DNA of 64,000 nucleotides from an uncultured candidate division Zixibacteria bacterium (GTDB lineage Bacteria; Zixibacteria; MSB-5A5; UBA10806). Numbering within the stretch: the stretch's first letter is position 1; every line of letters begins with the position of its first letter. The translations under genes and the position numbers were made by a program. Of the stretch, positions 1 through 3,612 are shown one piece after another. The notes below the pieces were generated by a model. That model was not told the DNA's origin, did no database searches, and worked only from the letters and a program-made list of their open reading frames with translations. The stretch covers positions 256,001 to 320,000 of the forward strand of contig CAWFQL010000017.1 in the NCBI GenBank assembly GCA_963817915.1, read 5' to 3'.

Positions 1-449
1 CTCTTTACGCAAATACCAGATAGTCGCCATGTTATTATAAGAGCGGGGATAAAGAAAATCGACCTGGGTGGCGCGGTCGTAATAGCTAAGGGCGTTATCG
101 TAATCGCGCTGCAGATAGTATATATTGGCGATCGATTGATAGGCATCGACATCGCGGGGGTTAAATACGATGGCGGCCTCGTAATTGGCGATAGCCGCGG
201 AATCGTTATTGATCTGCTGGTAGCAGACCGCCAATTCATGATATGCGGGAGCAAATTTCTGGTTATTCTTGATCGCCTTTTCATAGAGAGGTATCGCCTT
301 GCCGGGTTGATTTTGAACCATGAAATCATGAGCCTTGGTATAATAATCCAAATATTCTGTTTTCGCCGCAGGCTTGGGGCCGCACGATATAGATAAGCAT
401 GATTAATGCTGATATAATTGCTAGTCGCAGCCATATTGATATTTTTCAT
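1..449 (-). CDS. TPR-repeat (lipo)protein, runs off window start; 5' end broken by two apparent indels
   Basis: Minus frame reads SCGPKPAAKTEYLDYYTKAHDF...KAIPLYEKAIKNNQKFAPAYHELAVCY...AIVFNPRDVDAYQSIANIYY (TPR helices). GAGG SD and ATG at 449. The hydrophobic signal WLRLAIISALIML lies in another frame, implying shifts near 445 and 390. Confidence 0.7.
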   Translation of the reverse strand, partial: MKNINMAATSNYISINHAYLYRAAPSLRRKQNIWIIIPRLMISWFKINPARRYLSMKRRSRITRNLLPHIMNWRSATSRSITIPRLSPITRPPSYLTPAMSMPINRSPIYTICSAITITPLAITTAPPRSIFFIPALIITWRLSGICVK

Positions 450-475
450 CTTCACCTCGAAAAATGGTCTAATAT

Positions 476-790
476 TTAGTGACGTCCAAATATATGATTT
501 AGCCTGTTAATAATCAAATTAAATTTGCCTTTAATACCAAGGCGGGAAAGCTTGCGGTGGATTTTGTCCGCGTCAGTGAGAGAGGGATTATATATTATTT
601 CAGCCCGATCGATTTCTATTTTCGCTGATATAACACCTGCCAGCCCCTCCAGGGCGGCTCGAGAGATATTCGCTCATATAAAGCAGGGGAGCCCGGTAAT
701 CGTGAAGATGGCAGTATTGCGGCCATCAGGGGAGTCGTTCACAGATACCAACATGACCTCGTATCGCTCAAAGACGCGTCTAAACATCAT
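476..790 (-). CDS. HMA (heavy-metal-associated) domain protein with CxxU motif, putative selenoprotein (in-frame TGA at 674-676)
   Basis: Own translation: MMFRRVFERYEVMLVSVNDSPDGRNTAIFTITGLPCFI(TGA)ANISRAALEGLAGVISAKIEIDRAEIIYNPSLTDADKIHRKLSRLGIKG..., ending at TAA 476-478. The HMA fold pattern continues past the TGA, which sits at the second Cys of GxxCxxC. Absent from the ORF track. Confidence 0.7.
639..658 (-). promoter_or_regulatory. Candidate bacterial SECIS hairpin
   Basis: Minus strand GCC-GCCC-UGGAG-GGGC-U-GGC. The stem starts 15 nt and the G-containing loop about 22 nt after the UGA; bulged U on the 3' side. Confidence 0.55.
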
Positions 791-814
791 ATTCTATTAA
801 ACTTCCAAAACGGA

Positions 815-1498
815 TCAATGCTTTCTGGCGATAATCTGGGCAAGCCCGTGCTGGTGGAATGCAGTCTGAGTACCGTGAGGCTTATCCCAGATCAAACCTT
901 CATGATAATAGATAATTTCCCAATCCCTGAAATGTCCCGCCAAATACCCTTTATCAAGGAATGTGACCGAATAGCCGCGCTGATTGTGTTCGAGAGTCCG
1001 AGCAGATTCAGGCAGTCCCAATGATTTAAGATTTTTTGCGAATGATGGGTCTTCGATTGTAAACGCCTCTGCAGAAAAAATGCCTTCCGGCTCTACCAAC
1101 GATTTAAAATATTCGATGCGCTCGCCAATTGTATCTGGCGGAAGGAATTGAAGAATATTCATAAGAAGCACAAGATCAAATTTTCCCAGGTGGTTATGGG
1201 AATCGACAGCGTCAAGTTCAAACGTGCCAATATTCAGGTTAGTATCTTTTATAGTGTCTCTGATTTTCGTTAGCCCTGCTGCGGCGATTTCCGTGGCTAC
1301 TACGTCAAAGCCATGCCTGGCGAGAAAGAGGGCATCGCGGCCTTCGCCACATCCGATATCCAGCACGCGGATGCCCGGCGGCATCAAACTGCTAATAAGC
1401 GGTATTAACAGATTCGGTTGATCGCCCCAGTACGAAGCTGGCTGTGAATACTGATTATCGAAATAATCTCTGCTGGATTTGCTGTAGTTATTGTCCAT
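815..1498 (-). CDS. Class I SAM-dependent methyltransferase, TehB-like
   Basis: VLDIGCGEGRDALFLARHGFDVVATE motif I and YFRDWEIIYYHE-type C-terminus. ATG at 1498 preceded by AAGGA. Confidence 0.8.
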   Translation of the reverse strand: MDNNYSKSSRDYFDNQYSQPASYWGDQPNLLIPLISSLMPPGIRVLDIGCGEGRDALFLARHGFDVVATEIAAAGLTKIRDTIKDTNLNIGTFELDAVDSHNHLGKFDLVLLMNILQFLPPDTIGERIEYFKSLVEPEGIFSAEAFTIEDPSFAKNLKSLGLPESARTLEHNQRGYSVTFLDKGYLAGHFRDWEIIYYHEGLIWDKPHGTQTAFHQHGLAQIIARKH

Positions 1499-1687
1499 TG
1501 ATTTGTCCTTCGCATAGTAATTACGCAAGAACTGCCTAACAGGCGATAATGATAGAATGGATAAAGTGAAAAAGGAAGATATTTCGGATTTCGATTTAGA
1601 GGCTTGGGCGTTATTTTAGCAATACCATTTTTCTGGTTTCCGATTTATCGCCTGCAGTTAAGCGGTAGAAATAAATGCCGGATGCTT

Positions 1688-3183
1688 CTATTTCATAAGG
1701 AGCATACGCTTAGTTGCCGAACCATATTCTGTTTTCAATTGATAATAATAAGCGAGGCGACATTTTGTCCAGAGCAATTTTTGCCATTCCAGGTAATACT
1801 ATGGATACCCGAATCGCGATAATCGTTATAAAAAGCCGTTACTTTTGTTCCCGTAATATCATAAATGTTCAGTTCAACCGCAGATGGCTTCGATAATGAG
1901 AATTCGATGTTGGTTTCAGCATTGAAAGGATTTGGATAGTTCTGACTAAGTTCGAAAGCAGCCGGAATCGGCGATTCCGGGATACCATTCTGATCGAATA
2001 TTACCGAATCCCGAGGAGTTTCAATAGTCGCGAGGCCATCAGAGAAACGGAAGTAATAATAATGAATGCCCGGGCTGGGCCAGGGGAGCGCTGTCCTAAA
2101 TTCCGATGAATCATTGTAGGTATGATCGGGAGAACCCATTCGAAACATGCCTCTATCGAACATGATATATGAAGTAACCGGCAAATTATTGTCAGCGTCA
2201 TTGTAGAGGCAGTAAGGGGTTATAGCCACATTCGGGATAACATCAAATCCGTAATTTGATAATGTCGGAGCTGTATTTGATCCTGTATTCAGGAATCCTG
2301 TCTGAGGTATAAAAGCAGAGGGATATATATAGTCATTGAGAGCGGGAGTTTGCGATGAGATTGTCAGAGTCAAACCCGATGTTAAGATATATCCGGCATG
2401 CGGAGGCCAGATGGGAAATTCAGGCTGGGATACAAGATCACTTATATTGCATGCCATGTAGAGATTATTGCCGGAAGTCTGATACTGGATATCGCCTATT
2501 CGGCTGAATGAAGTATCGGCCAAATTAATTCGAAAAAGGCCCGGCTGTATAAGAAATGGTACGGAGGCGTAAACAAGCGCAATCGTGGACAATTGTAGCG
2601 TATCGGGATTGATCAATGGGAAAACATAGGCATACATAGTCGTAAAGCCTTCGCTAGTCGGCCAGCCGCCGCCGACATTATTTAGCCGGACGAAAATCTT
2701 AGTATCTGAATAAGTAATTGCTGACCCGATTAGATCAAGAAATGGACCGGCTGAGCCGGGAGTCGTATCGCCGACCGCATCGGTCGCCAATGGCGCATAT
2801 AATACAGGAGCAGGCGGGAATTGGTTGGCGCGGTTAAAATATGATTGAGTCAGAACCAATGTATCACTCTCGACCCGGCCGTAAAACTGAATTTCCCCCG
2901 ATGGGTTAGGAAACCAGATTGTCCGCTCATAAGTATTTAAATAATTTGGGTCATCTACAAAATGCATCATAGTTACAGAGGTATCGGAATTGGCATTCCC
3001 AACTCTAGCATGAAGCTTTACATCAAATATTGGCAAGCCGAAGGGATCGATGAAGTCAAAATTGAATTTCGCAGAATCGTTAGTAGCCAGCGCGGATGAG
3101 CATATGTTATCGATTGGGGCGGATACGGCCGAAATCGACATGGCCGCCATCAATATTAAAATAAGTCCTATAGCATTTTTCAT
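1688..3183 (-). CDS. Secreted protein with T9SS type A / FlgD-Ig C-terminal domain; apparent frameshift near 1752
   Basis: Signal peptide and FELSQNYPNPFNAETNIEF...IYDITG...WNGKN. The CTD end AYYYQLKTEYGSATKRMLLMK* is in a shifted frame ending at TAG 1688-1690. Confidence 0.8.
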
Positions 3184-3204
3184 CTTCACACCTCTTTATT
3201 AGAA

Positions 3205-3612
3205 TTACTTTTTTTGCTGTTTTAATTCGATCAGAATCCCTCCTGCGGATTCGGGATGAATAAAGGCGATCATCGATCCGCCCGCGCCTTTGCGAGGTTT
3301 CTGGTCGATCATCTTCACGCCTTTGGCTATCAATTCATTGACAGCCTTATTTATATCATCAACTGCCAGACAGAAATGATGGATGCCTGGCCCGCGTTTG
3401 TCAAGAAATTTCGATATTGCGGAATCGCTATCTGACGACTTGATAAATTCAACTTCGGAATTGTCCAGGTCGACCATCGAAAGGCTGACCTTGCTTTCAG
3501 GATTATGTTCGATTTTACCGGATTTCAAGCCGAATAATGTGTTAAATATTTTGGAATATTTTTCGATATCATCGACCGCTATTGCAACGTGATGTAATCC
3601 CAATATTCTCAT
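3205..3612 (-). CDS. mce: Methylmalonyl-CoA epimerase
   Basis: [32 protein letters not shown]; overlaps the mutase stop codon. Confidence 0.92.

Follow-up and report, generated by a model that had tools for sequence, protein, structure and literature searches.

Gene 790..476, on the minus strand of the window (the whole stretch of DNA that was analysed, 64,000 nucleotides), almost certainly encodes a selenoprotein, a small protein of predicted HMA fold in which an in-frame TGA takes the place of the second cysteine of the metal-binding loop. As its main job we propose soft-metal binding by the Cys36/Sec39 pair, a reading to which we give a probability of roughly 0.55. The reading frame, the conservation of the UGA, selection, the hairpin behind the codon, the host machinery and the fold were computed, and we infer insertion of Sec, metal binding, location and partner.

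Gene structure and the in-frame TGA

The start of the gene aligns with an ATG or TTG at the same position in 14 relatives. Residue 39 is specified by the TGA at 676-674, after which the frame continues for 65 further codons before it closes with TAA. The following features are referred to throughout.

476..790, minus strand: Sec39 coding sequence, 104 aa; ATG 790-788, TAA 478-476, with the TGA read as U
725..790, minus strand: family-specific N-terminal extension, made up of a short amphipathic stretch of basic character and an additional predicted strand (residues 11-19)
530..724, minus strand: HMA (ferredoxin-like) core, residues ~23-87, from the model and the family profile
674..694, minus strand: metal-loop motif G33-L-P35-C36-F-I-U39 (GLPCFIU), with the family form G[LI]PC[FG][IF]U
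674..676, minus strand: in-frame TGA, predicted Sec39, in place of the second Cys in the HMA CxxC loop
639..658, minus strand: bacterial SECIS candidate, an 8-bp stem with one bulge, GGA loop at 650..648, -13 kcal/mol
479..529, minus strand: family-specific C-terminal tail, a basic amphipathic helix after the invariant G85-x-K87-G88
815..1528, minus strand: class I SAM methyltransferase, distantly TehB-like, 24 nt upstream of the gene start

A sequence-only reading of this DNA had pointed to a frame with an internal TGA that was missing from the track of open reading frames. The gene is indeed absent from the table 11 list of start-codon ORFs of at least 40 aa, and the peptide quoted in that reading is exact. 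The TGA also falls precisely where it was said to, and aligns with the second Cys of CopA/ATP7 domains. The statement that HMA-like sequence continues for about 65 codons past the TGA holds for the number of codons but not for their character, as the resemblance to HMA stops near residue 87, some 48 codons beyond the TGA, and the remaining 17 residues of the 104-aa protein form the family-specific tail. The sequence-only reading had further proposed to look for homologues, for coding selection beyond the TGA and for selA, selB, selC and selD in the genome: relatives keep both the TGA and the hairpin, purifying selection is seen past the TGA, and all four genes are present in the host.

Distribution of the family

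Searches that read through stops recovered the family in 6 of 285 genomes of the phylum, spread over three genera and two families and with one TGA each. A DNA pattern for metagenomes returned 36 matches; it allowed TGA, TGC or TGT, but not TGG, at both Cys positions, and at +1, +8, +9 and +13 it prescribed the amino acid while leaving the codon free. Thirteen of these are members (129-173 bits to the family profile, next best 27), all of them with TGC or TGT followed by TGA; the other 23 were dropped, 22 of them having arisen by chance (at most 21 bits) and the last being a MerA-like Cys protein (27 bits). The family thereby comprises 19 loci and 15 distinct sequences, 31-41% identical to the 104-aa protein, and the TGA is present in 19/19. 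While the Cys36 codon is divided between TGC and TGT (12 and 3), the codon of residue 39 is TGA in all 15.

Among 1,212 candidates from protein databases, five relatives were found, namely three fragments that start after the TGA and two full-length forms with W39. A third W39 form falls into one cluster with one of the fragments and has an identical C-terminal sequence, which points to a single gene translated with two different codes; the three database W39 proteins are probably table-4 gene calls. Relatives thus stand in the databases truncated or with W at the Sec site, which supports the earlier claim of a Sec-containing HMA protein overlooked by gene callers.

A Cys orthologue of the family was not found by the profile search, the metagenome pattern, the protein databases or the 285 genomes. 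In the profile search, which covered 1.84 billion representatives, the best 150 of 2,645 matches are all at least 140 aa long with two or more matched stretches, and the family motif occurs in none of these 150; single-domain Cys relatives below 62 bits would fall outside that list. A protein search with the single sequence gave three candidates, none significant. We also rejected the one match of a scan of genome contigs restricted to Cys codons (to which TGA forms are invisible) and a single viral pattern match, both due to chance, as well as four plasmid matches, which are ordinary ATPase domains.

In a tree with 60 Cys-HMA domains, the 15 members lie on one side of a branch supported at 99/96; built from 70 columns with the motif included, and carrying a long-branch warning, it lends weak support to a single family. 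The carrier relatives also encode several ordinary Cys-HMA proteins. SelA is present in 259 of the 285 genomes, so that co-occurrence of the family with the Sec machinery is necessary but not discriminating. Only 6 genomes have the gene though 259 have selA, and in the host family it is missing from 10 of 13 further genomes; the gene is therefore dispensable. In genome G009, selA (C102) and the methyltransferase (L145/L146, C118) are each in two pieces, probably through assembly indel errors.

Selection and the antisense frame

All 15 distinct frames start 38 codons before the TGA and run 65-83 codons beyond it. By Nei-Gojobori counts summed over pairs, in which kin are not independent, dN/dS in the five-member clade closest to the window gene is 0.21 ahead of the TGA and 0.27 beyond it, and in a more distant nine-member clade 0.18 and 0.10, respectively. 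Synonymous change is about threefold lower over the hairpin codons: pS over codons +4..+13 is 0.136 in the five-member and 0.158 in the nine-member clade, compared to flanking values before and after of 0.449/0.513 and 0.458/0.637. Leu+8 is encoded by CTG in 15/15 members, with CTG making up 19% of Leu codons in the host.

An antisense ORF at 525..800 shares third codon positions with the gene and, in the host, is open across almost all of it, as would be expected were this frame the real gene. However, 14 of the 15 members carry internal stops in it, and the antisense ORF is therefore a shadow. Moreover, the T of the TGA is a free wobble base in that frame, yet it never varies.

Hairpin behind the UGA

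The sequence-only reading had placed a hairpin with a G-containing loop at 639-658; this hairpin is present, begins 16 nt after the TGA, has 5 contiguous and 3 further pairs, and holds its GGA loop about 23-24 nt from the UGA. The legend of Fig. 2 in PMC13188914 gives a bSECIS model with a loop of 3-9 nt, an upper stem of 4-16 bp, a G in the first two loop positions, a distance of 16-37 nt from the UGA and an MFE of at most -7.5 kcal/mol. Compared directly with the figures in that legend, hairpin 658..639 agrees with them.

Stability alone is within chance, with shuffle z-scores of -0.44 to -1.24 in two shorter segments, 0.12 and -1.00 in longer ones and -1.47 in a segment of 26 nt. An equally stable G-loop hairpin also follows about 5% of 12,808 in-frame TGAs, those of the host genome that pass a simple filter. 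Support for the hairpin comes from its conservation across the family, not from stability by itself. A G-loop hairpin of -6.2 kcal/mol or lower is found in 15/15 members, with the loop 18-27 nt from the UGA, while only 4 of 62 Cys-HMA controls reach -6 kcal/mol, with loops at 13 or 32-33 nt and none within 18-27. Of 1000 synonymous resamples, 55 are as good as the native hairpin for gene 790..476 (0-144 across the family), an advantage per sequence that is only modest. Covariation is thin: two of eight pairs are changed on both sides, no more than in shuffles.

The position of the hairpin differs between lineages. The GGA-loop form is the best fold in gene 790..476 and in 8 of 9 members of the nine-member clade, despite a protein identity of about 33%. 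In the closer five-member clade (L022, L023, L024, L065 and L075), a GUC-loop hairpin lies about 4 nt nearer the UGA and overlaps the GGA-loop hairpin. No one consensus hairpin accommodates all members, with 76.7% and 50% of cells paired in the two registers. Loops containing GUC also occur in the host selD, SelW-type and one Omp28-like gene. The SelD SECIS of the nine-member clade was not recovered with the pattern used, and Rfam gave no match in 1..3500.

Selenocysteine machinery of the host

The host genome (G000, 93.9% complete) encodes tRNA-Sec (selC), selD, selA and selB next to one another on contig C6, each scoring over its curated cut-off, and selD carries an in-frame TGA of its own. 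TGA terminates 415 of 1,432 stop-free stretches of at least 300 codons and is therefore not a Trp codon in this organism. SelA was found in 5/5 of the other carrier genomes and tRNA-Sec in 4/5, the genome with no tRNA-Sec match being 89% complete.

A crude scan of the host genome for a Cys-flanked TGA with a hairpin returned 96 candidates, mostly noise but with SelD among them; five were followed up. Read-through candidates are listed at five host loci (C12:570353, minus strand; C12:166787, plus; C17:553848, plus; C5:29966, plus; C6:121118, minus), two Omp28-like frames (UxxC) among them. The other three are a SelW/Rdx frame with CxxU that scores over its cut-off, an OS_HP2/DUF1573-like frame with a UGC motif, and a thioredoxin-fold frame with WUxxC and a helical C-terminal part. 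With SelD, SelW-type, Omp28-like and other read-through frames, the host would therefore use Sec in several proteins.

Fold and family features

The read-through protein scores 17.3 bits against PF00403 (gathering cut-off 24.8), and among four relatives three give no match and one, from the nine-member clade, 36.7 bits. With the Pfam match this weak, the fold assignment is drawn from the family profile and the model. The 22 distinct PDB sequences found with the profile are all annotated as ATPases for copper, zinc or other heavy metals, as copper chaperones or as mercuric reductase, and C36 and U39 fall on the two metal cysteines. The AlphaFold model, with U represented as C, has a mean pLDDT of 74.6 (73.4, and thus no better, with a deeper alignment) and resembles an ATP7B domain with a Z of 10.5 and an rmsd of 1.7 over 65 residues, followed by CopA, CsoZ and CopZ at Z 8.8-9.7. 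All top ten structural matches are HMA domains (Z 8.6-10.5). Foldseek gave no match at E <= 0.001, with HMA domains holding the first three ranks. Profile and model together point to an HMA ferredoxin-like fold with a CxxC-type loop at the start of helix 1.

G33, P35, C36, U39 and A40 are invariant in 15/15 members. The 62 Cys-HMA controls have G[MLI]xCxxC at this place, and a Pro precedes the first Cys in only one of them. Members carry a net charge of +4 to +10, and the C-terminal tail has a hydrophobic moment of 0.44-0.83 across all 15; model confidence is low at both ends, in residues 1-10 and the C-terminal tail. No hydrophobic N-terminal stretch is present (mean hydrophobicity of the first 10 residues -0.33 to 0.17 in the 15 members), and the protein is therefore predicted to reside in the cytoplasm.

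Comparison with known families

The closest catalogued relative is NF041115 (UxxU_metal_bind, 'metal-binding (seleno)protein'), which corresponds to the putative mercuric reductase with UxxU in Table 1 of PMC13188914. Like the present family it is a small HMA-type selenoprotein, and it is the best NCBIfam match of 5/5 members scanned, over model positions 3-71 of 74. However, the five members reach only 24.7-50.8 bits (41.7 for the 104-aa protein) against a cut-off of 95. Unlike NF041115, with its two Sec in UxxU, the family has one Sec in CxxU, the first position being TGC or TGT in 15/15, and its proteins are 104-122 aa long with terminal extensions. On the same model, as many as 79.6 bits are reached by ordinary Cys-HMA domains from this phylum, and the match consequently reflects fold kinship only; none of the 285 genomes passes its cut-off.

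With CopZ/Atx1/CsoZ and the P1B ATPase domains (PF00403; PDB 1cpz, 6ff1, 2rml and 6a71) the family shares the fold, with Z 8.8-10.5 and rmsd 1.3-2.2 over 62-67 residues. It differs from them in having Sec for the second Cys and G[LI]PC for GM[TSHD]C, in an extra strand and two basic amphipathic ends, and in its net charge; CopZ-type NCBIfam models give at most 39.1 bits against cut-offs of 85-112. CopZ/Atx1 genes typically lie beside a Cu(I) ATPase or a copper regulator, whereas the family gene was not seen next to either, as judged by eye at 16 loci.

CxxU or UxxC motifs also occur in selenoproteins of heavy-metal transport, namely the MerT/CopZ fusion NF045683 and two entries of Table 1 of PMC13188914, the putative mercuric transport protein (C/SxxU) and the Sec-containing P1B ATPase (UxxC). 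Unlike these membrane transporters or fusions, the family protein stands alone; when 7,999 candidates were scored for longer forms, a single ordinary ATPase turned up, which is weak evidence in this direction. Scores are far below the cut-offs for MerP TIGR02052 (at most 24.3 of 92.55 bits), NF033556 (at most 31.6 of 180 bits) and NF045683 (19.8 of 375 bits, in one of five members).

The family is thus placed with the HMA fold and among the selenoproteins, would work like an HMA metal-binding protein, and is a member of none of the families tested. A stand-alone CxxU HMA protein was not recognised among the 119 entries of Table 1 of PMC13188914, and a description of the family was not found in the literature searched, mostly open-access papers. 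HMA-type selenoproteins are already catalogued; what is new is a stand-alone CxxU family that is basic, has no evident signal peptide and for which no Cys orthologue was found.

Genomic neighbourhood

The SAM methyltransferase and a TPR gene flank gene 790..476, and all three are on the minus strand. Inspected by eye, the ORFs at 16 loci, several of which are on short contigs, include nothing recognisable as a metal transporter, mer gene or metal regulator. The host's single Cu-type P1B ATPase, which we take to be Cu(I)-type from its CPC, YN and MxxSS motifs, is on another contig (C12:150272-152950, plus strand); by eye, it has a YHS-like start, a degenerate-looking HMA domain without cysteines and then one intact HMA domain. 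The host has no further stand-alone HMA protein that passes the Pfam cut-off; this and the Cu(I)-type ATPase were counted in favour of metal binding.

The TPR gene (1..455, minus strand) seems to be spread over three frames, one with the start, one with a hydrophobic signal-like stretch and one with a lipobox-like SISC, which suggests small indel errors in the assembly. On the other side, 1735..3189 (minus strand) encodes a secreted protein with a FlgD/T9SS-like tail that ends early at TGA 1737-1735. The usual end of such a tail, YYYQ...KRMLLMK, continues in another frame near 1757, and a frameshift, natural or an assembly error, therefore lies about 20 codons from the end. To the left of the window, on host contig C17 (L134:2555-7498), a multiheme-cytochrome-like protein, a Tat-like Fe-S protein, an NrfD-like membrane protein and another heme-motif protein form a cluster about 3 kb downstream of gene 790..476 on the opposite strand, as assigned by eye. 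A promoter and terminator scan gave 6 and 3 sites, compared to 3.7 and 1.2 expected, and was given no weight.

Proposed function and alternatives

We propose that SelB, carrying Sec-tRNA, binds the hairpin that follows the UGA, and that Sec is inserted at position 39, which would yield a soluble 104-aa HMA-fold protein with Cys36 and Sec39 in an exposed loop. The thiolate/selenolate pair would bind a soft metal, in the first place Cu(I), with Hg(II), Ag(I) and Cd(II) as possible ligands. As a matter of general chemistry, a selenolate is a stronger ligand than a thiolate for both Cu(I) and Hg(II). On the cytoplasmic side, the protein may buffer the metal with high affinity or hand it over, and its basic amphipathic ends would dock it to a membrane or a partner. 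Counting against metal binding, the loop departs from the chaperone consensus, with Pro before the first Cys, Leu/Ile for Met and an aliphatic residue after G85. The term metal chaperone, used in the sequence-only reading, is suggested by the HMA fold; neither a partner ATPase nor a mer gene was recognised beside the gene.

Less probable, though to be taken seriously, is a redox selenoprotein in which Cys36 and Sec39 form a selenenyl-sulfide on an HMA scaffold and are reduced by a thioredoxin-like partner, with metal binding being secondary. This would be congruent with the nine-member clade, where a ResA/TlpA-like CxxC redoxin lies directly downstream on the same strand in 7 of 9 distinct members (of the remaining two, one contig ends at the gene and one has no redoxin), and with the CGFU/CFIU loops, which with their fixed Pro differ from metal chaperones. 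A passage of PMC13188914 describes CxxU as mostly a redox motif, which we counted in the same direction. However, no redoxin was found downstream in the six members of the window gene's own clade, its homologues in the host genome are weak (best E 3e-6), and the modelled fold is that of metal-binding domains rather than of thioredoxin.

A bolder and somewhat more doubtful picture combines several of these elements. Here, a Sec-only HMA family without a Cys form would use its Pro-Cys-x-x-Sec loop and two basic amphipathic arms as a selenol redox switch or metal sensor at the membrane surface, the partner being thioredoxin-like in one lineage and a methyltransferase in the second. The SECIS register would have moved, one genus swapping the GGA-loop for the overlapping GUC-loop hairpin 4 nt closer to the UGA.

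That the selenoprotein instead passes a metalloid or metal (selenium, tellurium, arsenic or mercury) to the adjacent SAM methyltransferase for methylation seems distinctly unlikely. The methyltransferase is upstream on the same strand in 6/6 distinct members of the window gene's clade, at a distance of 24 nt in the host, and its best family matches are TehB models. These matches are nevertheless far below the TehB cut-offs (67 of 303 and 57 of 218 bits), and the arrangement is seen in 0/9 of the nine-member clade, in whose genomes the methyltransferase was not found with that of the host as query. Furthermore, it is present in 10 of 13 other genomes of the host family, in 7 of which the selenoprotein was not found, and in 4 of these 7 it is directly followed by the convergent biotin-carrier gene. 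The methyltransferase is thus a neighbour, not an obligate partner.

Finally, it is very improbable that the TGA is an ordinary stop (in a pseudogene or split gene, or through assembly error) or encodes another residue, or that the antisense ORF is the real gene: although both neighbouring genes have apparent frameshifts in the assembly, the hairpin is not significant by itself and the single contig from the one DNA run (0.10 of words shared) spans 1391-1541 only, outside the codon, the same TGA recurs at 18 further loci (14 distinct sequences, with identities as low as about 31%), the codons beyond it are still under purifying selection, and TGA is a normal stop in the host genome.

Significance

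The broad impact of this selenoprotein family is moderate, because the host range is narrow and HMA-type selenoproteins are known. The family was not found in the 119-entry prokaryotic catalogue in Table 1 of PMC13188914 and scores below every NCBIfam cut-off. It shows how such genes get lost, with database relatives cut at the UGA or read with Trp, and, as no Cys orthologue was found, it would escape searches that rely on Cys/Sec pairs. The shift of the SECIS register, if true, would be a natural test of what SelB recognises. Moreover, a single domain of 104 aa whose textbook metal site pairs one Cys with one Sec is a simple system in which to ask what selenium contributes to a Cu(I)/Hg(II) site, be it affinity, selectivity or resistance to oxidation.
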